A DNA stretch of 64,000 bases from Bdellovibrionales bacterium (lineage in GTDB: Bacteria > Bdellovibrionota > Bdellovibrionia > Bdellovibrionales > UBA1609): the NCBI GenBank assembly GCA_050249195.1, contig JBFWQY010000021.1:10012-74011 (forward strand), read 5' to 3'. Under the pieces are notes generated by a model. That model made no database searches. It worked only from the letters and a program-made list of their open reading frames with translations, and was not told where the DNA came from. Of the stretch, positions 25,879 to 56,509 are shown piece after piece. Both the position numbers and the translations under genes were made by a program. Positions within the stretch are counted from its first letter, which is position 1; every line of letters starts with the position of its first letter.

Positions 25879-26303
25879 GCGGCCGGGAGGAGGCGCCAAT
25901 CGCGGCTTTGGCCGTCGTCGCGGCAATCATTGAAAATTCTGATGGACGGATTCTGCTGGTTCAGCGTCCACCGGGGAAGTATCTAGCCGGTCTCTGGGAG
26001 TTTCCTGGTGGAAAGGTCGAAATGGGAGAGTCGGCCGAGACCGCTCTCCACCGGGAACTTAAGGAAGAGCTGGGTCTTGAGGTGGAAATTCAGTCGAGTC
26101 TGGGAGTGTTCCACCATATCTACGACTGGGGACCAATCGCGCTGAACGTCTTCGTGGTGCACGCCAACAATGCGCCACAAATCAGTGATCAGGTTCATGT
26201 TTTTCGCTGGTGTTTACCGCATGAGGTGAGGGTGCAAGACCTCACGCCGGCCGACCATCGACCATTGGCCAGATACCTCTCAACTTGCCTCAACTCACTC
26301 TGA
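25875..26303 (+). CDS. mutT: NUDIX hydrolase, MutT-like 8-oxo-dGTP diphosphatase
   Basis: Nudix box GLWEFPGGKVEMGESAETALHRELKEELGLEV closely parallels E. coli MutT. ATGA overlap with the pcp stop. Confidence 0.75.
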   Translation: MSGREEAPIAALAVVAAIIENSDGRILLVQRPPGKYLAGLWEFPGGKVEMGESAETALHRELKEELGLEVEIQSSLGVFHHIYDWGPIALNVFVVHANNAPQISDQVHVFRWCLPHEVRVQDLTPADHRPLARYLSTCLNSL

Positions 26304-26343
26304 AAAAATCCGATACAGAGAATGCGTTGGGGGAATCCTTAGA

Positions 26344-26880
26344 ATGTCCGTTCGCAAGATTATTGCCGAAAAGCTGATGTGGGAGACTCTGAAGCGCTGG
26401 AAAAAGTCCTCACCTGAACTCGATCGTATTGAGTTTTTACGAACCGTCCCCTTCTTTGGAGAGCTTTCCACTTGGCAGCTAAAACGCGTTGAAGAGGTCG
26501 TGTTTGAGCGCGCTTACGAGCCCAATGAGCTCATTTTTGAACAAGGCCAGCCTGGCGCCGCGCTTTTCCTGATTATGGAGGGGCAGGTCGCCGTTGAGAT
26601 CTATCACGAAAAATTCACGGCTAACCTGGCGACGCTTGAGCGTGGCGCGTTTTTCGGCGAAATGGCACTCCTCGACCAATCTCCACGCTCCGCCTCCGCG
26701 CGCGCAACGGTTAAGACCCGCACGCTGGCCTTATATAGAAATGATTTGATTCACCTCAGTCAGTCGGACCCGGAAACCGCGTGCCAGATTTATCGGGCTC
26801 TGGCCGGAATCATCGGTGATCGTCTTCGCTCCACGAACGAGCTGGTGCAGGAGACAACCGGGGAGAGGGTGGCGGCGTGA
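26344..26880 (+). CDS. Stand-alone cyclic-nucleotide-binding domain protein
   Basis: CNB signature FFGEMALLDQSPRSASARA preceded by the beta-roll region (IFEQGQPGAALFLIMEGQV). Confidence 0.8.
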   Translation: MSVRKIIAEKLMWETLKRWKKSSPELDRIEFLRTVPFFGELSTWQLKRVEEVVFERAYEPNELIFEQGQPGAALFLIMEGQVAVEIYHEKFTANLATLERGAFFGEMALLDQSPRSASARATVKTRTLALYRNDLIHLSQSDPETACQIYRALAGIIGDRLRSTNELVQETTGERVAA

Positions 26881-41228: not shown

Positions 41229-43922
41229 TTACAGATCACTACAGAGATAGAGATGATTCGCCGGGTTCCACGTACTGATGATTCCATTCTGGGCTTCGTT
41301 CAAGGCGTCGGCACCGGTGCTGGAACGAAGAGCGCTGCGCGTGACCGTCACCGGATTCGCCGTATCGTTCGCGCAAATAAGATCCGTGACGTAGCCGCCG
41401 CCGCCCTTGCCTCCCGTTGCGCCTGAACCGGCGTCGGACGCGATGAGAAGCGGGTTTCCGCCCGCGGTCTTACGAGCCATAACAAAAATACTTCCCCCGG
41501 CTCCATTTCCGCCGCCGCCGCTTAAATCCCCGCCCAGCGCGGAAATCTCAACCCCGGTCCCGTTGACCTGGATTTTATTGGCCATGACGAAAAGAATTCC
41601 ACCTCCAGGACCGCCAGCTCCCGACGAATAATGTCCACCACCGCCTCCGCCAAAGGCGAGTGGGAACATACCGCCTCCGGAATTGGAGCCGAATCCAGGG
41701 TTCCCACTCGAAGCGCTGTAACGGCCTCCGGATCCAGCGCTGCCACCGCCCGATCCCGGAAGGTCAGTGACTGTGCCTCCAGCACCCCCTGTGCCCGTTG
41801 AGGCGCCCGAGGAGCCCGCCGCAGAGGTCCCATCGCCCGCGAGGGTCACATTGCCGCCGGCATAACCGCGTCCCGCGACCGAAAGAGAGGCGTTGTTTCC
41901 ACCAAAAATCAGCGCTCCGCTCACCCGCAAGGCCAAAATTCCTCCCGCAGAATCTCCATAGGTGAAGGCGGGTGCTGTGTAGGTGGCCGTCGCATTCAAA
42001 GTGAGATCGTTATAATGCACGACCTTAACCACCTGCACATAGCAAAAACTGGAGCCGGAATTAGACGCCGTCGTGAGATTCGCGCCGCTGACAGTCTCGA
42101 GTCGATCGACCAGCGATCCTTTAGAAATCTTGAGGATTGTCCCTGTGTTGGCCCAGATCACACGCGCAAAGTCATAAGAGCCTGGGCCCGCTTGAGCTCC
42201 ACACGTGTTTGAACCCCGCATGCCCGAGACGTGAATCATGACTTCATCTCCGGCGGAAAATTCCGAGGTTGTGTAGCTGGACGTGAATGTCACACTTGTG
42301 TAATGAGGACTGGTTGTGGCGTCAACCGCCGAAACCCTTCGCCCAGCGGGATGAGTTTGCAAAGAGGACACGGTTCCGTCGGCTGAAGAGAGCGCCCACC
42401 CAAAATGCTCGATTTGACCGCAGCCGCTTCCACATTCCGCATACACGGGTCGGCCCAAATAATGGGCGCCGAGTGTAGCCAAGCCGCGCGGGCAAAGTGC
42501 GTAGCGATAGTTATACCAGTTGCCCGCCGTAAATGCGGCATCTTGATTTTGGAACGTGTCCTGCGAAGAGGGCGTCGTCACCGATCCGACCTTTACATAG
42601 CCCAGTCCGCCCAGCTCAGCGCAGCTGCGATCGTATTCGCCGCCGTCGCCACCGGATGAAAGTTTACGCCAAACTTCAATTTCACTTAAGCCGGCGCCCG
42701 CATGTGGCAGAAGGCTCCACTTGAGGTCAATGCAATGTGTGCTTGAACAGCCTCCCGTATCATTGAATTTGACGCTCACGAAGCCACCATGACGAACAAA
42801 CGGTCTGAGCAGACGAAATGGACCTTCCATGCCTGAATAGCCTTCACGGCCGCTAAAGCCCAATCGCGTGTGAAAGAAGCGGAGACAGTTCCCGTTATCC
42901 AGGTCCGTTTGCGTGCACCCAGACATACCGGTGAGAGTGAAGAGCTGATCAAAGGTTGCGGAGGTTCCGCCCGAGTTGTTACGTATGCCCGTCCCGGAGA
43001 CTCCCGTGTAATCCATCAGCTGGGTTAAAGCGGCATCGCTATAAAGACTCGGAACGCCCTGTTGTGAGCTTGCGTAAAACACTTTCTTGCCAGACGTGTA
43101 GCTGTCGGAGGCATTGTCAAAAAATCCAAGCACCAGCCGAGTTTCAGGTACAGGTTCCATTCCATCATCTTCGCGCCGGAAGCCAGCCGGCTGAAGCATA
43201 ATCAGGCGCTGAAGGTTCCCGGAAATGTTGGTGAGACCTCCGCTCACGCGGTGTTGAAGATTCCCGGCCGCATCTAAAGTGAGGTCGTCAAAGATCTTGG
43301 CCTGAGTTTCCGCCACCACAAAGTCAAAATAAGCGCCTTGAACCGCGAACCCTTGAAACCATCCATTCACGATCGGCACACGGTCGACTGCCATAGCCGG
43401 TTTGCCGTTGTTCATATCGAAATATAGGATCAGATTTCCCGTGGGGCCGGTATTCGACCCCGTGAGATAGCGACCTGCGATTTCCGCTTCCTTACCTGAG
43501 CTGGTTCCGGATGCAGTGGCTGTGATGTCGACGACCGTCGTACCACTCACATCCGCGACTCTATCGCCATAATAGAATTTGAGATCACCGGCCCCGTCGC
43601 CCCGGTAGACGCCGAGAAATTGGATAAGAAATCCGGAACCCGCCGGAACGTTGGGTATCTCCATCTCGAGCGCCTGGCCGAAAGGAATTTCAGCAGCTCC
43701 AGGTTTGTCTGTGTCCAGCTGAGATACGATCGGTAGTGGCTTGCCCGGCACATGCACATTGACGATGGCGACCTCAAGATTATAGGCCGCAAGCCCGCCA
43801 ACGGAGGATGCAACAGGAATGCGGATTTTCACGGACTGTTCTTTAGCTTCGCGCGTGCAACTCAGGGCGCCCAGGAGCCCAAAGCTCAAAACGAAGCCAA
43901 CAGAGATTTTCCACAAACGCAC
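41229..43922 (-). CDS. Large exported (lipoprotein-like) protein with Gly-rich C-terminal region
   Basis: GTG start with GGAGGGG 6 nt upstream and an N-terminal signal ending ALSC. The last ~200 aa are dominated by GGxGG / SGxG runs (GGAGGTVTDLPGSGGGSAGSGG..., FGGGGGGHYSSGAGGPGGGILFV..., GGGGNGAGGSIFV...). No family recognised. Confidence 0.7.
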   Translation of the reverse strand: MRLWKISVGFVLSFGLLGALSCTREAKEQSVKIRIPVASSVGGLAAYNLEVAIVNVHVPGKPLPIVSQLDTDKPGAAEIPFGQALEMEIPNVPAGSGFLIQFLGVYRGDGAGDLKFYYGDRVADVSGTTVVDITATASGTSSGKEAEIAGRYLTGSNTGPTGNLILYFDMNNGKPAMAVDRVPIVNGWFQGFAVQGAYFDFVVAETQAKIFDDLTLDAAGNLQHRVSGGLTNISGNLQRLIMLQPAGFRREDDGMEPVPETRLVLGFFDNASDSYTSGKKVFYASSQQGVPSLYSDAALTQLMDYTGVSGTGIRNNSGGTSATFDQLFTLTGMSGCTQTDLDNGNCLRFFHTRLGFSGREGYSGMEGPFRLLRPFVRHGGFVSVKFNDTGGCSSTHCIDLKWSLLPHAGAGLSEIEVWRKLSSGGDGGEYDRSCAELGGLGYVKVGSVTTPSSQDTFQNQDAAFTAGNWYNYRYALCPRGLATLGAHYLGRPVYAECGSGCGQIEHFGWALSSADGTVSSLQTHPAGRRVSAVDATTSPHYTSVTFTSSYTTSEFSAGDEVMIHVSGMRGSNTCGAQAGPGSYDFARVIWANTGTILKISKGSLVDRLETVSGANLTTASNSGSSFCYVQVVKVVHYNDLTLNATATYTAPAFTYGDSAGGILALRVSGALIFGGNNASLSVAGRGYAGGNVTLAGDGTSAAGSSGASTGTGGAGGTVTDLPGSGGGSAGSGGRYSASSGNPGFGSNSGGGMFPLAFGGGGGGHYSSGAGGPGGGILFVMANKIQVNGTGVEISALGGDLSGGGGNGAGGSIFVMARKTAGGNPLLIASDAGSGATGGKGGGGYVTDLICANDTANPVTVTRSALRSSTGADALNEAQNGIISTWNPANHLYLCSDL

Positions 43923-44052
43923 AACACCCCTCCGAAATTAAGTCTTAAAGACCTAACAAGCCTCAATGCTCTTCGCTCTTCTCTTATCGGATGCCGACAA
44001 TGACGGATTAAATCAATGGACCAGAATGAGACCGTGTTTCCGAAAGAAGTTC

Positions 44053-45021
44053 TTAGGCCGCGTCTCGCTTCGAATCAGCAGGCTTTGGGTACAATACGTC
44101 AGCTAGGGGGCGGCGGCGATTGCGAACAATCCAAGCAAACCCGGATTCCGCGTTATGACTCTCCATCAGAGCTTTCTGGGTGAGCTCATAGGCTTTCGGA
44201 AGCTGTGAAAAAGGCAGTGTGGGAAAGAGATGGTGTTCGACATGATAGTTAAAATTGAGCAAAACGGGAGTTTCAAACCACTTCCCATATGTGCAGCTAC
44301 GGCTGATCAAATGTTGATCGTTAGGAGCTAGTCGAACGTCGCCGCCGAACTGAGGCAACTCGAGATGGTGAGGAAAGTTTACGGACTCCACAAGTACAAG
44401 ATAGAAGAGGATAGCGGGTAGCAGAAGGACAAGACTTAAATATCCACCCAGGAAGAACGTGACTCCTGTCCACACTCCTATTGGAAGCAGGAGGCTTGCA
44501 ATCTCAGAGCTACCCTTTCTTGTCGATTTGGAGCTCCTAGTGGCATTGGACCAGAACACGATCTGTTGCATAATCGCCAGTATGGGAAGCCACCACCGCC
44601 AGGCCATTTCAATGATCCGGCTAATTCGTCCCCCATTCTTAACGTGGAGACAGAGTTTCATGACTGGATCTTTCTCTATGTTCCCGGCCCAATAATGGTG
44701 CCGCAAATGGTCACTCTTCCACTGAGCGTAGGGCAAAAAACAAAGAACGCCAAATCCCAGCCCTAGGATATCATTAAATCGCCCGTTCACATGCAGGCAG
44801 CCATGCACCGCCTCATGCATGGCTCCAAAGGCTCTAAAAAACAGCAGAGCTAAGACCAGGGCGCCAAAGATAGTGAGCGGAAACCCTGCAGATGCAAAAA
44901 CGGAGGCTCCAATTAATAGAACCGTGTCCAGGAAGAGGTGCTTTGCCCAATACAGGGAGGACGTTTTAAAATTGAGATGGCGGCGCACCTGGAGGTATAT
45001 GGAACCCTTCATAATAAACAT
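44053..45021 (-). CDS. Membrane fatty-acid desaturase/hydroxylase family protein (di-iron His-box)
   Basis: Three His boxes in canonical order: HEAVHG (HxxxH), HLRHHYW (HxxHH), HVEHHLFP (HxxHH). Multiple TM helices. Confidence 0.8.
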   Translation of the reverse strand: MFIMKGSIYLQVRRHLNFKTSSLYWAKHLFLDTVLLIGASVFASAGFPLTIFGALVLALLFFRAFGAMHEAVHGCLHVNGRFNDILGLGFGVLCFLPYAQWKSDHLRHHYWAGNIEKDPVMKLCLHVKNGGRISRIIEMAWRWWLPILAIMQQIVFWSNATRSSKSTRKGSSEIASLLLPIGVWTGVTFFLGGYLSLVLLLPAILFYLVLVESVNFPHHLELPQFGGDVRLAPNDQHLISRSCTYGKWFETPVLLNFNYHVEHHLFPTLPFSQLPKAYELTQKALMESHNAESGFAWIVRNRRRPLADVLYPKPADSKRDAA

Positions 45022-45097
45022 GATCGGATTAGATGCGACCTACCTTTAACATTTGAAATATTGACACACGTGCTAAGACATGGTATTTGGATAGAGC

Positions 45098-45838
45098 ATG
45101 AAGATGGAATGGAAGCCTCCCGCAGATTCGAGTCTCTGGTTATCTGGTAGTCTGCGCGGTCTGGCCGATTTTAAGAGTATCATACACGATACTTCGCGAT
45201 TCCTCTCCCGCCACGGCATCTATAAGAATTCAGCAATTTCAGATTCCTCATACGGGCGAATAGTCGAAATGGGCGAGAGCGCGCTCTCCGAGATTACATT
45301 GCGGGCCCGTCGGGTTCTAGATGTTCATCTTGAACTCGAAAAAGAAGGTTATGATTTAGATGATTCCAAGCACCTGGCCCGCGTGGCGTTAGGGCACCTC
45401 GGGCTGCTTACGGACGAAATCATCTTTAAATCTCTGCGTAGGTCTGACATTGTAGAAATTTATAATACCAATCATATCCAGATCTTTCGCAGCTTTAACT
45501 TCTTTCGAATCTGTAATTACAATCTTGACGAAATTTTGCTGAACGAGTGGTACACGCTTTACGAGCGTGACGAAAAGATCACCTGCGAAATACTGACACA
45601 AATCGAGGGTCACCTCAGGCAAAGCCGGTCCGTGACCCGGTTCTCAGTGCCAGCCCACATCATGCGAGAGCGGTTCTCCTCAACCCAGGGAATGTTTATA
45701 ACTAAGTTTAAAGTCTTAGCATCGGTATTTGATGGGCCTGAAAGTCGAGCTGGCTTTCTGTGTACCATTCGGGGGCGCCCCATCTCAGCGAGCCCAAAGA
45801 AAATTTCTTTTTTAAGTTCGAATCGTTTAAACCGATAA
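45098..45838 (+). CDS. Hypothetical cytoplasmic protein with PAS-like C-terminal half
   Basis: 246-aa ORF. IVEIYNTNHIQIFRSFNFFRICNYNLDEILLNEWYTLYERDEKI ... GMFITKFKVLASVFDGPESRAGFLCTI resembles the PAS core pattern. No output domain, TM segment or HTH is visible. Confidence 0.45.
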   Translation: MKMEWKPPADSSLWLSGSLRGLADFKSIIHDTSRFLSRHGIYKNSAISDSSYGRIVEMGESALSEITLRARRVLDVHLELEKEGYDLDDSKHLARVALGHLGLLTDEIIFKSLRRSDIVEIYNTNHIQIFRSFNFFRICNYNLDEILLNEWYTLYERDEKITCEILTQIEGHLRQSRSVTRFSVPAHIMRERFSSTQGMFITKFKVLASVFDGPESRAGFLCTIRGRPISASPKKISFLSSNRLNR

Positions 45839-45865
45839 GTTTTATACAGTTTAGATATTTATTTA

Positions 45866-45885
45866 TCACATGCATATTCATGTGA
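45866..45885. promoter_or_regulatory. 20-bp perfect-arm palindrome TCACATG-CATATT-CATGTGA upstream of the acyltransferase gene
   Basis: Read directly in the 63-nt gap between 45838 and 45902. It ends 16 nt before the ATG, just 5' of a GAGG RBS. Confidence 0.3.
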
Positions 45886-45901
45886 AAACTTCGAGGTTTA
45901 A

Positions 45902-46591
45902 ATGGATCGGATTGAACTTCCATTCGCCACGCTAGACCTCTTCCCTACCCGATGGCCCGCGCCTCACGCCGTACCAAAGTACAATGAGACCTTTCAATTT
46001 TGGCACACGATCTGGGAGCAAACCTTCGCTGAGCTCAAAAACCAACGTAAGCTCTATTCAGACGACTTCTTTCGCATGGACGAGATCCTCGCCCTCTCAT
46101 CCGCGGGCAAAGTCGTCGGTTGTTTCCTATTCGGCTGGTATGATCTGCGGATCGACTCGCATCGATATCACTCCTATTTTAGCGCGTATCCCGAAGAGCT
46201 CATGCACATGCTTCAGTCTTCCACCTCCGGAATTGTCATGAGTATGGGGTATTTGGCTGTGGCCCCTGAGTGGCGGAAATCTAAAGTCGGCGTTCTGGTT
46301 TCTGAGGCTCTCCTGGGTCTGGCCTGCAAGAGATTTATTGCCTCCGGTGCCAGTCATCTCATTGCCTATACGAGGAACGATCGAAAAATTAATGACCTGT
46401 GTTATAGATACGGCGCGAGATGTGCCTACTCAAACCGTCGGGAACATAATGTGAGCGTTGACATTGTGCTTATGGAAAGGCCGGATGTTCGTTTCAGCCA
46501 AGACAAGAATGTTCGAACTTTCGTCGATGAACTCTGGTTGCGCCGCGCGTACCACGTCTCCACTCCTGTGCACCAAGAAAGTGCAGCGTGA
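45902..46591 (+). CDS. GNAT/LuxI-fold N-acyltransferase-like protein (N-acyl amino acid / autoinducer synthase-like)
   Basis: 229 aa. Order of blocks: W.TIWEQTF...YSDDFFRMD (acidic D.D.FD-like block), GKVVGCFLFGWYD, MGYLAVAPEWRKSKVG (GNAT beta4-alpha3-like), HLIAYTRNDRKINDLCYRYGA. This parallels LuxI/OlsB-type enzymes by eye. Not verified. Confidence 0.5.
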   Translation: MDRIELPFATLDLFPTRWPAPHAVPKYNETFQFWHTIWEQTFAELKNQRKLYSDDFFRMDEILALSSAGKVVGCFLFGWYDLRIDSHRYHSYFSAYPEELMHMLQSSTSGIVMSMGYLAVAPEWRKSKVGVLVSEALLGLACKRFIASGASHLIAYTRNDRKINDLCYRYGARCAYSNRREHNVSVDIVLMERPDVRFSQDKNVRTFVDELWLRRAYHVSTPVHQESAA

Positions 46592-46598
46592 GGTCTCT

Positions 46599-47579
46599 AT
46601 GTGGGAAGCGAACCCGCCATCGGTTGCAAAGGGGGATCTGAGGAAACTTGCGCGTCCCAATTGGTCTGTCCCGTTGAGTTTACTGGCCGGTGATTGGCTT
46701 ATCATTGGAATGGCCGTTGCGCTGTCGACCTACACCGATAATTTTTGGGTTTACATCTTTTGTGCAGGCGTCGTTGGGAGCCGACAACATGCACTCTTTG
46801 TCCTCGTTCACGAGGGAGTACATAAGCATTTAGCACGAAGCAAGAGAGTCAATGACTGGATTAGCAATCTCTTTGCGGCTTATCCCATCCTTTTTGACAC
46901 GGAAGCTTATCGCGAAAATCACCTCCGGCACCATGAGCATCTCAATACGGACCAAGACCCTGATTGGACAAGAAAGAAGGGTCACTCCGAATGGAAATTC
47001 CCTCAAAAGACACGAAATTTAGTTCTGTTTCTGCCCTACTTCATCTGTATTCGAGGCGCTCTTGAATGGCTCCAGATTGTGTTGGCCTTCTCCGGTATAT
47101 TCGTGAACCACATCGCATTCCCTCGTATGCGGAAGCGCTTGGCTGTCAAGATCGTCTACTACACGTGTGTGGGAGTTACGATAACGTATCTGAACCTTTG
47201 GCCGGCAATGCTAAAATACTGGCTGATCCCTATGTTTTTTATTTTTCCTCTGCTGCAGAGAATTCGTAGCGTTGCGGAACACTTTGGTCTGCCTTGGGCT
47301 CATGATCTGAACTCAACCCGCGATGTTGTGGCGTCTGGCCTGGAGCTATTTTTCCTCGCTCCGCACGCCGTTAATTATCATCTGACGCACCATCTCTACC
47401 CGGCCATTCCATGCTATCACCTTAAAGAAACACATCGCCTTTTGATGCAGGATCAAGTGTTCCAACAAAATGCGCATATTAACGGAAGCTACCTGCTGGG
47501 CTCTCAAAACTCGGTGCTGGGCGATATCATTCGACCTGCCGCGACCTCGAGCCATGACCCGGAGAGGGCCAGTGCTTAA
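46599..47579 (+). CDS. Membrane fatty-acid desaturase/hydroxylase family protein (second copy)
   Basis: ATG at 46599, 7 nt after the acyltransferase stop. His boxes HEGVHKH, HLRHHEH (followed by LNTDQDPDW) and HLTHHLYP. The track start at 46458 would overlap the upstream gene. Confidence 0.8.
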   Translation: MWEANPPSVAKGDLRKLARPNWSVPLSLLAGDWLIIGMAVALSTYTDNFWVYIFCAGVVGSRQHALFVLVHEGVHKHLARSKRVNDWISNLFAAYPILFDTEAYRENHLRHHEHLNTDQDPDWTRKKGHSEWKFPQKTRNLVLFLPYFICIRGALEWLQIVLAFSGIFVNHIAFPRMRKRLAVKIVYYTCVGVTITYLNLWPAMLKYWLIPMFFIFPLLQRIRSVAEHFGLPWAHDLNSTRDVVASGLELFFLAPHAVNYHLTHHLYPAIPCYHLKETHRLLMQDQVFQQNAHINGSYLLGSQNSVLGDIIRPAATSSHDPERASA

Positions 47580-48079
47580 TTCGAGAACCACCATACTGAC
47601 ATAGAACCCAGCCACAAAAGAATCAGGCCAGCCATTAACCAGCGTTGCCTCAATATCTCTGTCTGCAAAGACTGGACTTGGCGCAGAAGTTCGATCTGGT
47701 CGGGTTCTTTATCAGAAGCAATCTGAGTCAGATGCCGATGTCGGAGATTGAACCACGTGGCCAGGTCTGGCTGTGTCATGAGCTTGTGGTTTAGCGCCAA
47801 GTACCATTCAAGTGCGCGGTAGATATGCGGAGGAACACGGTTCTCGTCCCTGCACCAGCGCGTCCACGCCGAGGGATCGACCATTAGAAGCTGGCAGATT
47901 TTACGTCGTGAAAAGCCAAGCTTATGGCGAACCTGTTCGATCCCTCCATGTTGCGCTTTAAAAAGACGTATTTCAGCCTCATACAGGAGTCGAAGCGAAC
48001 TTCGCGGTCTTTCCTCCTTATCTCTGGAGTTCATTTCAACGCGACTACTTTCATGCTGACTATAGGTCTCGTTTTCCAT
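47576..48079 (-). CDS. Membrane-anchored XRE/MqsA-like helix-turn-helix protein
   Basis: HTH-like segment VRHKLGFSRRKICQLLMVDPSAWTRWCRDENRVPPHIYRALEWYLAL, then a coiled segment and the C-terminal TM helix LMAGLILLWLGSMSVWWF. GAGGA RBS upstream. Confidence 0.55.
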   Translation of the reverse strand: MENETYSQHESSRVEMNSRDKEERPRSSLRLLYEAEIRLFKAQHGGIEQVRHKLGFSRRKICQLLMVDPSAWTRWCRDENRVPPHIYRALEWYLALNHKLMTQPDLATWFNLRHRHLTQIASDKEPDQIELLRQVQSLQTEILRQRWLMAGLILLWLGSMSVWWFSN

Positions 48080-48088
48080 CGGATCCTC

Positions 48089-48109
48089 TATATTGTGAAA
48101 TACAATATA
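48089..48109. promoter_or_regulatory. Palindrome TATATTGT-GAAAT-ACAATATA immediately upstream of the HTH gene
   Basis: Read directly: 8-bp perfect inverted arms, 10-30 nt upstream of the start codon at 48079 (minus strand). Candidate autoregulatory operator. Confidence 0.3.
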
Positions 48110-48401
48110 ATAATGCTAATCACTATAAATATAGTTGCATTACACAATTATAACAAACTCTACGTCTGTAACTTTGTTATGTCTCATTATGCATAAATCG
48201 TGCGGCGAGTATGAAGTGAGGGGATATTCAAAATAAGCTGGAGCTTATAACTATAAGTCATAGTGCTAAGCTGTTGACATTTAATGGAAATATGATCGAA
48301 TTTGAATTTGAGACCCTATGGAAACCTCTGTTTTCAAGGGTCCCGGTACAAATTTAAACTATATTTATATACTATTTTTCCACTCGCGGGATTGATGCGC
48401 A

Positions 48402-48938
48402 ATGACACGGACTGCAGTGCGATATGCTTTGAATAAGAACAAATATCTACTCGATCCAGAAGCCGAGAGACTTCATCACATTCTTGAATCGTTCAAACTT
48501 AAGGACGCACGCAACTGCACACTGCTCTGGGTCCTTCTCCATACGGGAGCACGAGCTCAGGAAACATTAAACCTGCGTATTGAGGATTTGAATTCCTACG
48601 ATGAGTCCGTCTTTATCCGAGGGATCAAGGGGAGCAACGATCGCGAGCTCCCACTCCCTTCCTGGCTCTTTAAACGCCTTATGGACGAGACTTCTCGAGC
48701 GGTGGATCAACAGCTTTTCCCCATTTCCTATAACCGTCTATTTCAAATCTGGGAGCTCTATCGTCCCGTGCATAAGAAACTCCATGCCCTCCGACACACG
48801 TTCGCCATCCGTCTCTACAAGAAGACCAAAGACCTGCGCCTTGTTCAGGTGGCTCTTGGGCATCGCAATATCACCAACACCATGATCTATGCAGATTATG
48901 TTTACTCACAGGAGGAGTTAAGAAAGTTGATCCTGTAG
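48402..48938 (+). CDS. Tyrosine recombinase, catalytic domain only (178 aa, FimB/FimE-sized)
   Basis: Catalytic residues in order: LLHTGARAQE (Arg I), HALRHTFA (His-x-x-Arg II), LGHRNITNTMIYADY (His + Tyr nucleophile). There is no N-terminal core-binding domain. Flanked by 320-bp and 425-bp AT-rich non-coding DNA. Confidence 0.8.
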   Translation: MTRTAVRYALNKNKYLLDPEAERLHHILESFKLKDARNCTLLWVLLHTGARAQETLNLRIEDLNSYDESVFIRGIKGSNDRELPLPSWLFKRLMDETSRAVDQQLFPISYNRLFQIWELYRPVHKKLHALRHTFAIRLYKKTKDLRLVQVALGHRNITNTMIYADYVYSQEELRKLIL

Positions 48939-49363
48939 AAAGGCGCTGGATCTGCGGGAAAATCGGTAAGGTTCCTTTATTAGTTACATAAATATCGATA
49001 ATAGAGCATGGATCGCGGGACGCTGCGTTTCCTTTTTTGAAAAATTTCCTCGCACCTCAAAGTTCTCGGTTACGCCTATTTTCTTTTGCTCTGATGTGAA
49101 AGTTAGCGTTTCTAGTGGATACTTTTTTTAAATTGCTGATATTTTTACTTTCAGCTCGCCTTTGGAAGAGTTCCATTTTGGCATATGCCTTTTGACTCCA
49201 TATAACGTGGACACGTAACCACGATTATTCGGTTACTCAGTGCATTCTTCACATTCACAGTGGTGATATTTCGGGGGCTCCAAATTTGTCTCTGTCCTTT
49301 AAAGTCTTGGTTTGGGTTTTGTTCTTTTCGCTTTTCGCCGGATTCCTATTGCCGGTCCGGCCG

Positions 49364-51277
49364 ATGGCCTGGTCGGAGACAATAACTTCAATGACTCCCG
49401 AGTCGAGCGGCCGTTCGCGTTGTCCCAGCCATTTGCGTGGCTCTCGGCGACAGGAGGTTGGTCAAGCCGCTATTGCCAGCCGTTTATACGGAATGCGGGC
49501 TTACTTTATGCGCGTGCTCAGGGCGCGAAACGTTCCCTCAGTAGATGATGAGGATATTTTGCAGGAGATGATCATCAAGGTTTCCAACCGCAAGAAAAAT
49601 GATCCTGAAATTGATGACCAAAGTCTTAAGGATTATGCCACAGCGGCTCTCGGAACCTTACACATCGACCATTACCGACGAAACAAGAGGGGGGTTACGA
49701 AGTCTATTGATAGGAGTGATCGTATTGATGATGAGGACGTTTCCACGGCGATAGAATCCGCAATTTCGACCCAACCCAGACAAGATGGAATTGTCTATTC
49801 TGCCAGAGATGTAATGGCCGCGATCGCCACTTTGCCGAGTAGGCAGCGTACAGTTCTCCATCTTCTCGGGGTCGAAGGACTTCTCCAGGAAGAGGCGGCA
49901 GTGGTCATGGGAATCAACCCATCTGCAGTCAGCATGCTTCTCGATCGTTCGCGAGAGGCATTGAACAAAGTTGAACGAAGTCGAGTTCCCTTTTGGGACG
50001 TACACGTTCATCAATTTGCGATGTCCTTACGTGAATTTTCTCCCGTCATTAAGGGCTTCTTTAGAGAAACGGTCGGGAACCTCTTTCCTAAAGAAGAAAA
50101 AGAGAAGTGGCTGTTAGAAACAGCAGTGGAGGAACTCACAAACAGGATCGTGATTGAAGCGATTGCAGCTCAACATACGCTTACAGGTGAAACGGATTTC
50201 GGCCGGTGGTTGTTCCAAGTTATCTTCAAGTCAGGACTACCAGAATGGGATCCTTCCTTTTCCCGTCAGAATCCGGAGTTAGAACGATTTCGTCCGGACC
50301 GTATGAAAGTGGAATTCGATCGGATGTATGCGGATTTCTTCGCTCAAATTCCCGTTGAAGATGCCGGATTGTATATTATGGCCTCCCGGCTGAATCGAAA
50401 CGACGTGGAAATTGCCGACGCTTTGAGAGTTGAAGATACCACCGGTATAAAGCCCCGACTCAAGAGCATTGAACCGAGAATTAAAACTTTCCTGCGTCAA
50501 ATCAAACGACCGCGCACAACTGGCGGACGGGGCAACCAGAAGTCATCGTCACTATACAGCGATAACATGGAGAACGCCTCCTCCTCCGCACCGCCTGACG
50601 AAAAGGAAGAAGCCCAAGGCGGTACCACCTTAGAAGCATCTTCAGCCATCGAGTCCGTTCCTGCCTCAGTTTCTGTTTCACCCCCAGACGAGGCATCAAG
50701 CTCGCATCCCATCATTTTGAATGGAAGAATCTTCAAGAAGAACTTGGTGACTGGGGGAACTGTCCTTGGCGTCACGGGCTGGATGATTGAACTGGTACCT
50801 GAAGAAGAAGATATAACCGTTCCCCAGCAAAGAATTAGCATTCACGTCAGTTCAATGAGTAACGATTCCCCCCTCGCGGCCGCCAGAGCCATAGCCAAGT
50901 CCCATACTCGCGCGGCGAGAGCAGATAGGAAGGTCGGCATAGCGAAAGCGGCTCCTTATGAAGAGGACCTTTGGAGTCGTGATTTTTGGATAAAGGCTCC
51001 CTACAAGAATCCGGAGATTTGGAGTGCAAGAGATGGCTCGGCCTGGCTCGAACTTTCAAGGTACGGATTTGCAGATCGACGCGCGGAGTTTATCCGAATG
51101 CGTATCGGCCGGTTCCGTGGCTGGGAGCTTTTGGTTGAGCATCAGCTACGAAGCGATAAGCTCGGCCTGCGGGCGCTCCGGGCATTGAGTGATCAAGGAC
51201 TCCTCGAAAGGATCTCTGAGGAAGCCTTTGTGAATATGTTGATCGGACCTCTCCCAGGAACAGGAACGCGCCAATAA
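49364..51277 (+). CDS. ECF-type sigma-70 family protein fused to a second degenerate sigma-like module and a ~250-aa unknown C-terminal extension
   Basis: Region 2-like DDEDILQEMIIKV...LHIDHYRRNKR. Region 4 is LPSRQRTVLHLLGVEGLLQEEAAVVMGINPSAVSMLLDRSREAL. A second weaker set follows: DFGRWLFQVIF ... IPVEDAGLYIMASRLNRNDVEIADALRVEDTTGIKPRLKSIEPRIKTFL. After that come a Ser/Pro/Glu-rich linker and a C-terminal domain. The track start TTG 49286 adds a hydrophobic extension; ATG 49364 is preferred (uncertain). Confidence 0.6.
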   Translation: MAWSETITSMTPESSGRSRCPSHLRGSRRQEVGQAAIASRLYGMRAYFMRVLRARNVPSVDDEDILQEMIIKVSNRKKNDPEIDDQSLKDYATAALGTLHIDHYRRNKRGVTKSIDRSDRIDDEDVSTAIESAISTQPRQDGIVYSARDVMAAIATLPSRQRTVLHLLGVEGLLQEEAAVVMGINPSAVSMLLDRSREALNKVERSRVPFWDVHVHQFAMSLREFSPVIKGFFRETVGNLFPKEEKEKWLLETAVEELTNRIVIEAIAAQHTLTGETDFGRWLFQVIFKSGLPEWDPSFSRQNPELERFRPDRMKVEFDRMYADFFAQIPVEDAGLYIMASRLNRNDVEIADALRVEDTTGIKPRLKSIEPRIKTFLRQIKRPRTTGGRGNQKSSSLYSDNMENASSSAPPDEKEEAQGGTTLEASSAIESVPASVSVSPPDEASSSHPIILNGRIFKKNLVTGGTVLGVTGWMIELVPEEEDITVPQQRISIHVSSMSNDSPLAAARAIAKSHTRAARADRKVGIAKAAPYEEDLWSRDFWIKAPYKNPEIWSARDGSAWLELSRYGFADRRAEFIRMRIGRFRGWELLVEHQLRSDKLGLRALRALSDQGLLERISEEAFVNMLIGPLPGTGTRQ

Positions 51278-52966: not shown

Positions 52967-53545
52967 ATGAAATCAAATGTCAGCTCGTTCCAGATTTTAT
53001 TAAAAGATCTGCCTCCAGAAGGACAAGATTTTGAGTTTTCACGTAATTCCGCAGAGTTAAACGATTTACTTGAAGACCTTATAGGCTCCCATGCCTACTC
53101 TATCAAAATCAGGATTACGCCCCAAGGCAACACCTTTGACCTTCGAGGAGAAATTCACACCGGATTTCAGCTTCAATGCTCCCGCTGCGCCACTGATTTT
53201 GAATTTCCCGTCGATCTCCAACTTCATGACTACTTGGTTATAGATCGTCCACTAGGAAAAGGGGACCAGATCAGCCGTGCCAACCATGCTCATGAATGGA
53301 ACGCGGAAGGTCCTGATTACATTCTTCTCCAATCCGAGACATTCAATTTGGCCGAATACGCTCACGAGGCGATTGCATTGGCTGAGCCTATGCGCCCCTT
53401 GTGTTCTCCCAACTCTGCGGAAGGATGTCAAAATCCGGAAATTCGGGTGGAGCGGGAGTGGCTCTCCTATGGACGCGGAGAACGTGATGAATCGATTCGC
53501 GCAAATCCTTTTCGAGTGCTCGAAAAAATTAAATTAAAGAGTTGA
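52967..53545 (+). CDS. yceD: YceD (DUF177) family 23S rRNA accumulation protein
   Basis: LQCSRCATDFEFPV and C-terminal Cys pairs, plus the position immediately upstream of rpmF as in E. coli. Confidence 0.75.
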   Translation: MKSNVSSFQILLKDLPPEGQDFEFSRNSAELNDLLEDLIGSHAYSIKIRITPQGNTFDLRGEIHTGFQLQCSRCATDFEFPVDLQLHDYLVIDRPLGKGDQISRANHAHEWNAEGPDYILLQSETFNLAEYAHEAIALAEPMRPLCSPNSAEGCQNPEIRVEREWLSYGRGERDESIRANPFRVLEKIKLKS

Positions 53546-53596
53546 TTTCTTTAGACAAATAGATAATGTAGCCGCTTTATTACAAACAGGACGACT

Positions 53597-53776
53597 ATGC
53601 CAACACCGAAAAAGAAAACTTCGCGTTCGCGCCGAGACATGCGACGTTCCCACGACCACCTCAGCACGCCGGGCGTTCAAAATTGTCCGAACTGCGGGGC
53701 CATTGCCAAGCCGCACCACCTTTGCACCTCCTGCGGTTACTACAAGGGCCGAGAAGTCGTAACGGCTCAAGCTTAG
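53597..53776 (+). CDS. rpmF: 50S ribosomal protein L32
   Basis: Absent from the ORF track (59 aa). My translation is MPTPKKKTSRSRRDMRRSHDHLSTPGVQNCPNCGAIAKPHHLCTSCGYYKGREVVTAQA. It has the canonical L32 N-terminus and a CxxC...CxxC zinc ribbon. Confidence 0.85.
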   Translation: MPTPKKKTSRSRRDMRRSHDHLSTPGVQNCPNCGAIAKPHHLCTSCGYYKGREVVTAQA

Positions 53777-53781
53777 AATGA

Positions 53782-54774
53782 ATGGCGCAGTTTAGATCAC
53801 GTCTTGCGGGGACAGGCTCATTTTTACCTGAAAAGCGCCTTTCCAATGAGGACCTCGAAAAGATGGTCGATACCAACGACCAGTGGATCCGGGAACGCAC
53901 CGGAATTCGGTGGCGTCGGATCGCCGATGAGGGCGTCAATACCAGCGACTTGGCGCTAAGGGCCTCACAGCGCGCACTCGAGGCCGCGCAAATCGGTCCA
54001 CGTGACATTGACATGATCGTGGTCGGGACCGTGTCACCCGACCAACCCATGCCGAACACCGCATGTGTTCTTCAACACAAACTCGGAGCTCGCGATTGCA
54101 TGGCGGTCGATATCTCGGCCGCCTGTACCGGATTTGTTTATGGATACTCCATCGCGGACCAGTTCATTCGATCCGGAACTTACAGAAACATATTGGTAGT
54201 GGGCGCCGAGGTCTTGCATCGGTACGTAAATTACAAGGACCGCGAGACATGCATTCTGTTCGGGGACGCGGCCGGGGCCGCGGTGGTTTCGCGTGCGCGG
54301 GACGATGAAGATTCGCAAGTCTATAGCGTCCATTTGCATGCCGACGGTAGTATTTCCGATCTTTTTGTTCTTCCCGCGGGGGGCTCCGCCATTCCCTTTA
54401 GTCAAAGGGTGCTTGAAGAGAATCTCCAATACGTGCGGATGAAGGGTCGCGAGATTTTTAGACATGCTGTGCGCACCATGTCTCAATGCTGCGAGGAAGC
54501 GCTCCAGGCGAACAATATGAAACCCGAAGAGGTGTCTTGGGTTGTTCCTCACCAGGCCAATTTGCGAATCATTGAGGCGGTGGCCAAACATTTTGGAATT
54601 CCGATGGAAAAGGTTGTGGTTGAAATTGAAGACACGGCCAATACATCTGCCGCAACCGTGATTGTGGCTCTGGATCGCGCTATCCGCGATGGCCGGATCC
54701 GTCGAGGTCAAAACCTGCTGTTGACAGCCTTTGGTGCTGGGATCACGAGCGGGTCCATATTGATGAGGTATTAG
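53782..54774 (+). CDS. fabH: 3-oxoacyl-ACP synthase III
   Basis: TNDQWIRERTGI, the active-site Cys block DISAACTGFVYG, VPHQANLRI, GNTSAAT-like NTSAATV, and FGAGITSG. Confidence 0.9.
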   Translation: MAQFRSRLAGTGSFLPEKRLSNEDLEKMVDTNDQWIRERTGIRWRRIADEGVNTSDLALRASQRALEAAQIGPRDIDMIVVGTVSPDQPMPNTACVLQHKLGARDCMAVDISAACTGFVYGYSIADQFIRSGTYRNILVVGAEVLHRYVNYKDRETCILFGDAAGAAVVSRARDDEDSQVYSVHLHADGSISDLFVLPAGGSAIPFSQRVLEENLQYVRMKGREIFRHAVRTMSQCCEEALQANNMKPEEVSWVVPHQANLRIIEAVAKHFGIPMEKVVVEIEDTANTSAATVIVALDRAIRDGRIRRGQNLLLTAFGAGITSGSILMRY

Positions 54775-54778
54775 ACGT

Positions 54779-55750
54779 ATGTGGAGCGCTCTTTTTCCAG
54801 GACAGGGAAGCCAGCATCCAGGCATGGGTAAGTTCTTGTTTGATGAATTTGCCAGTGCTCGCGAAACTTTTGAGGAAGGTTCCGATGCACTGAATCTGGA
54901 TCTCAGAAAGTTATGTTTCGAAGGTTCGGAAGCGGAGCTGGCACTCACTCACAATACGCAGCCGTGCCTTCTTCTTGTGTCTACGGCCACGTATCGTGTT
55001 TTGAATGGCGAGTTTGGCTTTATGCCGCAAAATGCGGCCGGTCATTCCGTTGGCGAATATGCGGCCGTAGTGGCTGCCGGTAGCCTCGCTTTTTCATTGG
55101 CGATGAGGGCCGTGCGCGTGCGGGGCGAGGCTATGCAGTCGGCCGTTCCCGTAGGCCAGGGGGGGATGACGGCCGTGATGGGTCTTGATCCCCAACAGGT
55201 GTTTGAGCTTTGCGCCTGGGCGGAAAAAGAAAGCGGACAGGGTCCTGTTCAGCCGGCCAATATGAATGCTCCTGGGCAGATTGTGATCAGCGGCCGTAAG
55301 ACTGCTTTGGATTGGATACCGGCTCATTATCGATCTGATCTTTTTCCAGGGGCGCCTCGCGTCAAGTTTATTCCTCTTAAGGTCTCGGCTCCTTTTCACT
55401 GTTCTTTAATGAAGCCGGCCGAGGAGAAAATGGCCTCCGTATTAGGCGAAATGAAGTTCTCCGACGCTCGCTTTCCAATTATCCAAAATGTAAATGCGAA
55501 ACCTGTACGGGCGGCAACGGAGCTGCGCACCAACCTGGTTCAACAAGTCACCGCACCTGTACGGTGGATTGAGTGCGTGCAGACCCTTATACAAGGGGGT
55601 ACGTCGCGGGCTGTTGAAGTTGGATGTGGAAAAGTCCTTACAGGACTTGCCAAAAAAATTGACTCTGAATCCTTGCGGACATTCAATATCAATTCTTTGG
55701 ATGATATGCGAACGCTTGAGAGCGAATTTAAGGCGCTTCTCAAGGCATAA
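54779..55750 (+). CDS. fabD: Malonyl-CoA:ACP transacylase
   Basis: LFPGQGSQHPGMG, the active-site GHSVGEYAA, and SAPFHCSLMKPA. Confidence 0.9.
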   Translation: MWSALFPGQGSQHPGMGKFLFDEFASARETFEEGSDALNLDLRKLCFEGSEAELALTHNTQPCLLLVSTATYRVLNGEFGFMPQNAAGHSVGEYAAVVAAGSLAFSLAMRAVRVRGEAMQSAVPVGQGGMTAVMGLDPQQVFELCAWAEKESGQGPVQPANMNAPGQIVISGRKTALDWIPAHYRSDLFPGAPRVKFIPLKVSAPFHCSLMKPAEEKMASVLGEMKFSDARFPIIQNVNAKPVRAATELRTNLVQQVTAPVRWIECVQTLIQGGTSRAVEVGCGKVLTGLAKKIDSESLRTFNINSLDDMRTLESEFKALLKA

Positions 55751-55768
55751 ATTAAGGCGAAAGCAAGA

Positions 55769-56509
55769 ATGTTGAATTTGGCAGGAAAGCGCATTGTGGT
55801 GACCGGATCCAGTCGCGGAATCGGAGCGGGACTGGTCAAATTTCTAGCGGCTCAGGGAGCAAAGGTGACCGTCACCTATTCCTCTCATCCCGGGCCGGCA
55901 GAAACCGTGTTTGCAGGTCTTACAGGCGAGGGACACTTGCTACTGCCTTTGAACGTGACGTCCTCTGAATCGGTGGACCACGCCTTTTCTCAAATTCTTG
56001 AAAGATGGGGCGGCCTTGACGGGTTAGTTAATAATGCGGGAATCACCCGTGATCAGCTCTTGCTTCGAATGAAGGACGAAGATTTTGATGCGGTCATGAG
56101 TACCAATTTAAGAGGTTCTTACCTTTGCACCAAGGCCGCCATGCGTTCCATGTTGAAGGCCCGTGCAGGTTCCATTGTGAATGTCTCAAGCGTCATTGGC
56201 CAGATGGGAAACGCGGGACAAGCCAATTACGGCGCCAGCAAGGCCGGCTTGGAGGGTTTTACCCGTTCCGTGGCTCTAGAGGTCGCAACACGTGGGATCC
56301 GTGTCAATGCGGTGGCTCCCGGTTTTATCGTGACGGACATGACGGAGGGCTTGGATGAGCAGCAAAAATCAGCCATCCAGAGCCGCATCCCGCTTCAACG
56401 GCTCGGAAGTGTCGAAGATGTGGCGCAGTCCATTGCCTTTTTGTTGAGCGACATGGCGTTCTATATTACAGGTCAGGTCATTCATGTGAATGGTGGGATG
56501 TACATGTAA
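55769..56509 (+). CDS. fabG: 3-oxoacyl-ACP reductase
   Basis: [28 protein letters not shown] (YxxxK), and [12 protein letters not shown] at the C-terminus. Confidence 0.9.

Follow-up and report, generated by a model that had tools for sequence, protein, structure and literature searches.

A four-gene cassette in the genome of a Bdellovibrionales bacterium (contig JBFWQY010000021.1) appears to be the lineage-specific variant of a conserved, undescribed gene module, in which a GNAT-fold acyltransferase is combined with di-iron oxidases and a PAS protein. We give this reading a probability of a little under one half, about 0.45. The cassette occupies positions 44053-47579 of the window, by which we mean the whole 64-kb stretch of DNA that was analysed; open reading frames (ORFs) were listed mechanically and the DNA was read directly. 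We found no description in the literature of such a module, nor of Bdellovibrio sp. HM001, a cultured strain that carries one on a plasmid.

The cassette opens with two divergently transcribed genes. On the minus strand, desat1 (44053-45021) encodes a membrane di-iron enzyme of the FA_desaturase family of 322 amino acids (aa), and on the plus strand the neighbouring gene (45098-45838) encodes a stand-alone PAS protein of 246 aa, with four N-terminal helices followed by a PAS domain. Two further plus-strand genes follow: the gene of the GNAT-fold acyltransferase, a 229-aa member of an unnamed family (45902-46591), and desat2, which encodes a second FA_desaturase-family di-iron enzyme of 326 aa (46599-47579). 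The ATG of desat2 at 46599 lies 7 nucleotides (nt) past the TGA of the GNAT gene (46589-46591) and has a GAGG 5 nt upstream, while the longer, TTG-initiated desat2 ORF that starts at 46458 is a calling artefact of the mechanical list. Each of the four genes is real and positioned as in the initial annotation, which was made from the sequence alone and had already placed one desaturase homologue divergently upstream and the other 7 nt behind the acyltransferase stop. The check for synteny in Bdellovibrionota genomes that it proposed recovered orthologues of 40-55% identity, syntenic in four other Pseudobdellovibrionaceae contigs, and for this reason the cassette genes are not chance ORFs. From this conserved synteny and co-occurrence, we take the genes to form one functional unit.

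The predicted amide-forming step is the 229-aa protein. Pfam and NCBIfam returned nothing above threshold for it, so that it does not score as a generic small-molecule acetyltransferase either. Its AlphaFold2 model, built on a four-sequence alignment, has a GNAT fold with a predicted local distance difference test score (pLDDT) of 81 and a predicted template-modelling score (pTM) of 0.80, which places the modelled protein in the GNAT superfamily. A Foldseek search of the PDB with this model gave 154 matches at E<=1e-3; the top 50 listed were all GNAT-fold proteins, acyl-homoserine-lactone (AHL) synthases included. FeeM (2g0b, chains A-D) matched at E 1e-5 to 1e-4 with a root-mean-square deviation of 4.1-4.7 and template-modelling (TM) scores of 0.55-0.58 on the query and 0.66-0.69 on the target. 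The LuxI-type synthases BjaI, LasI, EsaI, RpaI and TofI (1kzf, 1ro5, 5w8a, 6wn0, 3p2f) matched at E 1e-5 to 9e-5, with TM 0.46-0.55 on the query over 211-226 columns, nearly the whole chain. Insect arylalkylamine, dopamine and agmatine N-acetyltransferases scored TM 0.51-0.55 on the query at E ~1e-5. Since both groups match the model equally, structure cannot separate a long-chain acyl-amide synthase from an acetyltransferase.

The LuxI/GNAT-fold guess of the initial annotation thus holds at the level of the fold, and the sequence blocks on which it was built, WHTIWEQTF, YSDDFFRMD, GKVVGCFLF and YLAVAPEWRKSKVG, were all located in the translation. Membership of the LuxI family itself did not survive: Autoind_synth (PF00765) found no match at E<=0.1 for the 229-aa protein and none at E<=10 in 51 members of its family or in the family consensus, and no LuxR-type gene (Autoind_bind plus GerE) is present among the window ORFs scanned, 36-57 kb. 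Neither Pfam FeeM (PF21926) and Acetyltransf_5 (PF13444) nor the NCBIfam N-acyl amino acid synthase models match the window protein significantly. Sub-threshold signals do appear in the family: the consensus matches Acetyltransf_1 at E 0.017 over residues 31-173, nearly the whole profile, FeeM is hit in 2 of 51 relatives (best E 0.011) and Acetyltransf_5 in 1 of 51 (E 0.0025). An hhalign comparison of the GNAT family with the single FeeM-family protein of a Maioricimonas locus described below gave a probability of 0.2%, against a target of one sequence, and PDB sequence searches with the GNAT profile, desat1 and desat2 gave nothing useful. The most conserved block of the family is TRNDRKxNELxYRxGA, and WRKxxxG is conserved too. 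By inspection, the former fits GNAT motif B on helix alpha4 and the latter the pantetheine-binding loop between beta4 and alpha3; this placement is consistent with an acyl-thioester donor.

The family is large. Three GNAT homologues and six PAS homologues came out of a word-indexed search of 5.8 billion sequences; an exhaustive profile search went much further and gave 950 GNAT-family representatives (clustered at 50% identity) at E<=1e-3, with 804 of them at E<=1e-10. Nearly all are metagenome singletons, called 'hypothetical protein' where they are named at all, and almost none carries a Pfam domain.

The second constant component is the 246-aa protein, which the initial annotation had called PAS-like and without an output domain. 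That description stands: the AlphaFold2 model (seven sequences, pLDDT 84) has four helices (residues ~14-100) and a C-terminal PAS domain (~105-230) whose strands and helices span residues 118-229, and no recognisable output domain was found in the protein. Foldseek matched the FAD-binding PAS domain of NifL at E 8e-4, the haem-binding PAS domain of DOS and the PAS-B domains of AHR, HIF and BMAL; the matches to 2gj3, 3lyx, 1v9z, 7vni and 3f1p have TM 0.6-0.68 on the target and probabilities of 0.99-1.0. Pfam and NCBIfam, PAS profiles included, found no match in the protein or in its family consensus, so its PAS membership stands at the level of the fold only. Conserved residues comprise D117, E120, Y122, Q128, C139, Y141, W151, R157, H187 and E191, and the polar ones among them are suggestive of a polar ligand pocket over a purely structural domain. 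C139, in the helical part of the PAS core, is nearly invariant (it is Thr in the L013 locus), at a position that may be analogous to the reactive Cys of LOV domains and of photoactive yellow protein. From its fold and its neighbourhood, the 246-aa protein is a likely ligand sensor.

The two membrane enzymes match PF00487 (FA_desaturase) with 121 bits each against a cutoff of 29.7 (desat1 E 7.9e-35, desat2 E 1e-34), and both belong to this superfamily of membrane desaturases and hydroxylases. Their His boxes have the HxxxH, HxxHH, HxxHH order that had been noticed in the translations: H69EAVH, H105LRHH and H260VEHH in desat1, H71EGVH, H108LRHH and, at about residue 261, HLTHH in desat2. There are four hydrophobic segments in desat1; in desat2 one lies above a crude threshold, and weaker ones accompany it. 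They belong to different subfamilies, as their mutual identity is merely 22%, and they have separate sets of orthologues, those of desat1 in L001, L002 and L004 (48-54% identity) and those of desat2 in L002, L004 and L005 (41-51%); L-numbers denote the fetched loci of relatives.

By profile score, the nearest named relative of desat2 is not a lipid desaturase; it is the amino-acid hydroxylase GntB, a transmembrane enzyme that makes gamma-hydroxy-L-arginine from free arginine in guanitoxin biosynthesis (bioRxiv 10.1101/2023.03.21.533663). The match to NF041365 (GntB; E 4e-48, 164 bits) covers model positions 13-299 of 308, nearly the whole model, and the His-box architecture is the same. The score remains far below the equivalog cutoff of 380, however, and the window has no GntC-like cyclase dependent on pyridoxal phosphate or other gnt genes. 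For desat1, NCBIfam matches are weak (GntB 4e-15, 56 bits; DesA 1.7e-11). By these scores both proteins fall short of the GntB equivalog and are related, yet different enzymes.

Homologues of desat2 occur in a setting that hints at chemistry. At 1623-7436 of L017, from the planctomycete Maioricimonas sp. JC845 (GCA_040717465.1), genes for a Pfam-FeeM protein, a nitroreductase-like protein and ThiF are followed by two desat2-like genes, whose products are 40% and 37% identical to desat2. This cluster resembles an N-acyl amino acid pathway of the tyrazolone/stieleriacine type, supplemented by two membrane oxidases. Stieleriacines and tyrazolones (tyz) are N-acyl-tyrosine-derived and come from clusters that resemble the L017 layout (PMC7293339, PMC10404671, PMC12856293), and the pathway proposed for stieleriacines includes a putative fatty-acid desaturase (PMC7293339).

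The case for a module comes from the neighbourhoods of the GNAT gene in other genomes. A search of a species-level genome collection contributed four loci, from metagenome-assembled genomes of Pseudobdellovibrionaceae and Bdellovibrionaceae, and a metagenome scan two short ones; neighbouring genes were typed with profiles built for this analysis. A PAS homologue adjoins the GNAT gene in 10 of the 13 loci with enough flank: the window, L001, L002, L004, L005 (in three copies), L006, L012, L013, L014 and L022. Three loci depart from this: in L007/8 the GNAT domain is extended at its N-terminus by 180 aa, and in L020 and L021 the neighbour is a PAS-GGDEF-EAL protein. The association with an O2-dependent di-iron oxidase is stricter still, as one adjoins the GNAT gene in every fetched locus with enough flank. 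In L005, L006, L007/8, L012, L013, L014, L020, L021 and L022 this is a haem-oxygenase-like di-iron oxidase (HDO, PF14518). The HDOs of the module are homologous to each other and keep the complete His/Glu/Asp ligand set; their subfamily matches an uncharacterised structure (3dde, E 2.4e-14) and, at E 0.08-0.65, CADD, BesC and UndA. In one representative of the GNAT family, the acyltransferase and the HDO are fused. In the most distant members examined, L020 (3248-9380) and L021 (5609-12004), the HDO is the C-terminal half of a 422-aa protein encoded directly upstream of the GNAT gene, and the PAS-GGDEF-EAL gene and a flavin monooxygenase (L020) or P450 (L021) gene flank it.

Profile typing found no HDO gene in the window. 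The gene order desat1, PAS, GNAT, desat2 is shared by the window, L002 and L004; L001 has PAS, desat1 and GNAT and lacks both HDO and desat2; L005 has PAS, PAS, GNAT, desat2, HDO and PAS and lacks desat1. Over the five loci of the window clade, desat1 is present exactly where the HDO is absent, and from this pattern we infer that the soluble HDO was displaced by the non-homologous membrane enzyme desat1. The second membrane enzyme, desat2, is an optional addition to the module. Other tailoring genes differ by locus (Trp_DMAT in L007, the flavin monooxygenase and P450 already mentioned, and, directly upstream of the GNAT gene of L006, an acyl-CoA dehydrogenase).

The ancestral form of the module is represented by L022, positions 84-2513 of the 161-kb plasmid pBdHM1 of Bdellovibrio sp. 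HM001 (AP029175.1). The genes there, BdHM001_36560 to BdHM001_36590, are ordered XRE-type helix-turn-helix (HTH) protein (minus), GNAT (plus), HDO (plus) and PAS (minus), and all are annotated as 'hypothetical protein'. When the GNAT and PAS consensus sequences were searched against 72,556 plasmids, this was the sole match for either.

The enzymes of the module are further united by their C-termini. In the cassette, desat1 ends in ...KRDAA (RDAA, 44053-44061), the GNAT protein in ...QESAA (ESAA, 46583-46588) and desat2 in ...ERASA (RASA, 47571-47576). Only 17 of the 238 ORFs of >=200 aa in all fetched DNA end in Ala-Ala, and 15 of these 17 are module enzymes: GNAT, desat1, desat2, HDO and the acyl-CoA dehydrogenase of L006, with four unrelated folds among them, a frequency of such endings well beyond chance. 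Such tails are also found in L001, L002, L004, L005, L006, L012, L014 and L022. The trend extends to the wider families, since the C-terminus is Ala-Ala in 23% and Ala in 47% of 152 GNAT relatives, compared with an alanine content of 6.6%, and 29% of 79 desat2 relatives end in Ala-Ala. The PAS partner never has this tail. Proteases of the ClpXP type recognise the ssrA degron chiefly by its C-terminal Ala-Ala. By analogy, the simplest reading is that module enzymes may be under coordinated, ssrA-like proteolytic control. Elsewhere in the window, the sole other ORF of >=150 aa that ends in Ala-Ala encodes a 216-aa protein with a cyclic-nucleotide-binding domain (26230-26877, plus strand).

Expression of the PAS gene probably starts from a conserved sigma-70-like promoter (45061-45089, plus strand), in which TTGACA (45061-45066) and TATTTG (45084-45089) are separated by a 17-nt spacer. 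TTGACAC and a TAT-rich -10 element are invariant or nearly so in the window, L002 and L004, despite ~50% protein identity. The mRNA probably has little or no leader, because only 8 nt separate the promoter from the ATG. Another conserved block, ATCGGAaT, adjoins the start codon of desat1. A promoter and terminator scan of the region did no better than shuffled sequence. The perfect 20-nt palindrome TCACATG-N6-CATGTGA (45867-45886), immediately upstream of the ribosome-binding site of the GNAT gene, was considered as a lux-box-like operator and dropped, as it is unconserved in L001, L002, L004 and L005.

Genes for regulators recur at the borders of the module. XRE-type HTH genes abut it in L013, L014 and L022 (31-35% mutually identical), an OmpR-type regulator adjoins it in L006, and L020 and L021 have their PAS-GGDEF-EAL proteins. 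In the window, a 167-aa HTH protein with a hydrophobic C-terminal segment is encoded at 47576-48079 on the minus strand, convergent with desat2 and overlapping it by 4 nt. Its match to HTH_31 (E 4e-4) is below cutoff, and an MqsA-family model matches weakly (E 6e-4). The gene is kept beside the cassette in L001, L002 and L004, with 39-49% identity, a length of 161-167 aa and a hydrophobic C-terminus. It may be the regulator of the module, which we state with reserve.

What we establish directly are the identities of the genes at the family or fold level, their conserved co-occurrence and the enrichment of the tails. To connect them, we propose that the GNAT enzyme would transfer an acyl group from an acyl-CoA or acyl carrier protein (ACP) thioester to an amine, probably an amino acid or a derivative, yielding an N-acyl amide. 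Di-iron enzymes would hydroxylate or desaturate the amine substrate or the amide; this oxidation step would fall to the HDO in most relatives and here to desat1, in the genomic place of the HDO, with the GntB-like desat2 coupled to the GNAT gene. The PAS protein would bind the product or an intermediate and feed back on expression through a partner HTH protein, and the Ala-Ala tails, carried by the enzymes and not by the PAS protein, would impose ssrA-like turnover. Our best guess for the product is an oxidised N-acyl amide, derived from an amino acid, with an oxidised head group or acyl chain, because the relation to GntB, the FeeM/ThiF/nitroreductase cluster, the substrates of HDOs and the acyl-CoA dehydrogenase of L006 together point that way. 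The desaturated or hydroxylated N-acyl amide of the initial annotation is kept as the most economical chemistry and draws indirect support from the layout of the L017 cluster; its labels 'LuxI-type' and 'aminolipid' are not.

On a bolder reading, the cassette is a self-contained signal synthase-receptor system specific to Bdellovibrio-like predators, in which a new family of GNAT-type synthases and a di-iron oxidase would make an oxidised acyl-amide autoinducer of new chemistry, a new class of stand-alone PAS receptor would sense it together with an XRE-type partner, and the Ala-Ala degrons would hold synthase levels in check. We consider this rather unlikely and offer it as speculation. Bdellovibrio-like predators are studied as 'living antibiotics', and we know of no signalling molecule that they make themselves. 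If true, the cassette would provide the first endogenous system for signalling between cells in this phylum, a genome survey of which found no acyl-HSL (that is, AHL) synthase homologues (bioRxiv 10.1101/2020.11.01.364414). Regardless of signalling, the analysis exposes two families that have no Pfam or NCBIfam model, the GNAT family (~950 clusters at 50% identity) and its PAS partner. Their linkage to O2-dependent di-iron oxidases would mark an unexplored small-molecule pathway with its own sensor, within which a soluble HDO has apparently been swapped for a membrane desaturase-type enzyme. The hypothesis is directly testable, because the module sits on a plasmid of the cultured strain HM001.

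Among known systems, the cassette works most like the N-acyl amino acid synthase clusters with oxidative tailoring, even though it is not a FeeM or Acetyltransf_5 member by profile. In both cases the committed step would be taken by a single-domain GNAT-fold enzyme, with genes for O2-dependent tailoring enzymes next to its own; target-normalised TM puts FeeM first among the structural matches (0.69), and homologues of desat2 occur inside a FeeM/ThiF/nitroreductase cluster. The window GNAT protein differs by motifs of its own (SDDF, HSYF, TRNDRKxNE), only the module has constant PAS and HDO/desaturase partners, and the window lacks ThiF, nitroreductase and ACP genes. The layout also recalls LuxI/LuxR systems of the LasR-RsaL-LasI type, in which a small GNAT-like synthase gene sits beside the gene of a small ligand-binding protein, often with an XRE-type HTH gene adjacent, and the synthase fold of the module resembles EsaI, LasI and BjaI. 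The module, however, has neither the Autoind_synth signature nor LuxR, its candidate PAS receptor has no DNA-binding domain, and a di-iron oxidase is obligatory. HDOs such as UndA, BesC, CADD, SznF and AetD act on amino acids or fatty acids. In most relatives the oxidase is an HDO with the full His/Glu/Asp set, and oxidation of an amino acid or a fatty acyl group is expected of it too; the window differs in having membrane desaturase homologues in place of an HDO. OlsB/OlsA/OlsE share with the module the combination of a GNAT-type N-acyltransferase with membrane oxygenases, but the oxygenases of the module are PF00487 and not of the FA_hydroxylase type, and the context of the family is regulatory rather than lipid-related. 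Finally, the module recalls PAS-type receptors of small signals, namely the PAS4 LuxR solos PluR/PauR and photoactive yellow protein with its adjacent genes for chromophore synthesis, in that its PAS domain is encoded next to the enzymes of the presumed ligand. The PAS protein of the module has no HTH output of its own, and no sequence similarity to these families was detected.

Several observations weigh against our preferred interpretation. The neighbourhoods sampled are about 13 independent ones, out of ~950 clusters of the family, and the swap of desat1 for the HDO is a pattern of presence and absence over five related loci only. Both AlphaFold2 models rest on shallow alignments (4 sequences for GNAT, 7 for PAS). 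The structural matches of the GNAT protein to FeeM and LuxI-type enzymes (TM 0.54-0.58) are no better than those to insect arylalkylamine N-acetyltransferases (0.51-0.55), all at E ~1e-5, so that its donor may be short-chain (acetyl), and no sequence model favours one acyl donor or acceptor over another. That the PAS protein is a sensor is deduced from fold and neighbourhood only, and as its top matches are FAD- and haem-binding domains, redox state or O2 could be what it senses rather than a module product. Nor does regulation fall neatly into place: the region upstream of the GNAT gene has no conserved operator-like element, and the window HTH protein is 18-21% identical to the XRE proteins of L013, L014 and L022 and not clearly orthologous to them, for which reason we list it as a possible part only.

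The alternative that we take most seriously is a specialised-metabolite or amino-acid-modification pathway without signalling, which might make an N-acetylated or N-acylated hydroxy-amino acid, an antibiotic-like compound or a surfactant, and in which the PAS protein would be a redox or O2 sensor that gates the oxidases, or else a non-regulatory accessory or carrier. It is possible, if on the unlikely side. Free amino acids are the substrates of HDOs and of GntB in natural-product pathways, small-molecule N-acetyltransferases are among the structural matches of the GNAT protein, FAD-binding NifL and haem-binding DOS are the top matches of the PAS protein, and tailoring genes vary across loci in the way typical of biosynthetic clusters. 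Yet no tailoring gene comes near the PAS partner in constancy, and XRE, OmpR-type or GGDEF-EAL regulators recur beside the module, with which no transporter, resistance gene, non-ribosomal peptide synthetase or polyketide synthase is conserved. The conserved residues of the PAS pocket are, moreover, mostly charged or polar, and cofactor motifs of the LOV and FixL types are absent. Membrane aminolipid remodelling, in which the GNAT protein, like OlsB, would N-acylate an amino acid head group and the membrane enzymes would desaturate or hydroxylate the lipid, seems improbable. Two integral-membrane FA_desaturase homologues do flank the GNAT gene, the locus is syntenic beside housekeeping genes in related genomes, with fab genes ~6 kb downstream, and one of the 51 relatives gave the weak Acetyltransf_5 match reported above. 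OlsE, however, is an FA_hydroxylase-family protein, not PF00487, the family to which both oxidases of the cassette belong. The olsB/olsE-type locus that the initial annotation had raised is not what we find: neither the cassette nor the scanned flanks gave a match to Acetyltransf_5, PF01553 or FA_hydroxylase, the window protein has no OlsB match, and the PlsC-type gene expected for OlsA (PF01553) is absent among the window ORFs scanned, 36-57 kb. Most oxidases of the family are soluble HDOs with regulators rather than lipid genes as neighbours, the L022 module is plasmid-borne, and the nearest named relative of desat2 acts on free arginine.

Two further readings have very little weight for us. 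A quorum-sensing locus built on a very divergent, true LuxI-type AHL synthase is hard to reconcile with an Autoind_synth profile that stays silent throughout the family, with the missing LuxR-type gene, with the Bdellovibrionota survey cited above and with a constant di-iron oxidase pairing that has no counterpart in LuxI systems; what speaks for it is that Foldseek aligned EsaI, LasI, BjaI, RpaI and TofI almost end to end, and that the acidic and aromatic N-terminal motifs (W..W, SDDF) loosely recall the N-terminal block of LuxI, a resemblance only. It is just as improbable that the GNAT protein is a toxin (for example one that acetylates aminoacyl-tRNA) or a resistance-type acetyltransferase, with the HTH protein as antitoxin or regulator and the other genes as unrelated neighbours. 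This idea draws on the GNAT toxin 7byy among the Foldseek matches, on XRE/HTH genes adjacent in several loci and on the weak match of the window HTH protein to the MqsA-family model. But GNAT toxins are ~60 residues shorter than the 229-aa protein, the HTH gene is not always present and lies outside the GNAT operon, and the genes conserved with it encode an oxidase and a PAS protein, with one GNAT-HDO fusion. PADLOC gave zero matches on the locus, so nothing marks it as a defence system, and the region was equally empty in Rfam and tRNA scans.

Some features of the surroundings deserve mention. Next to the HTH gene, a 178-aa tyrosine recombinase (48402-48938, plus strand) consists of a catalytic domain only; it is kept in this position in L001, L002 and L004 and matches integron-integrase, Xer and FimB-type invertase models, all below cutoffs. 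The spacer between the two genes (48080-48401, ~320 nt, AT-rich) contains a perfect inverted repeat of 13 nt, at 48124-48136 and 48357-48369 with 220 nt in between, and the repeat pairs in the spacers of related loci differ in sequence and spacing. The repeat could be an invertible switch or could be due to chance, and it is probably outside the cassette. Across the cassette and the HTH and recombinase genes (44001-50000), G+C is 0.455-0.505, against ~0.53-0.57 on either side. Five genomes share the chromosomal site, which follows genes for BamB, a tetratricopeptide-repeat protein, a Leu/Glu dehydrogenase and a large lipoprotein, in synteny. An 897-aa protein (41229-43922, minus strand) begins like a lipoprotein (…LLGALSCT…), is glycine-rich in its C-terminal region and matched nothing in Pfam; counterparts of 885-1093 aa are encoded directly upstream of the cassette in L001, L004 and L005. 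On the other side, yceD, fabH, fabD and fabG (52967-56509, plus strand) follow ~5-9 kb downstream and are probably ordinary chromosomal context, outside the module. Between them and the recombinase gene, a 663-aa protein (49286-51277, plus strand) combines a hydrophobic N-terminus and a sigma-70 region of the extracytoplasmic-function type (residues ~76-228) with a C-terminal extension of >400 aa that has no known domain, an unusual architecture for a sigma factor.

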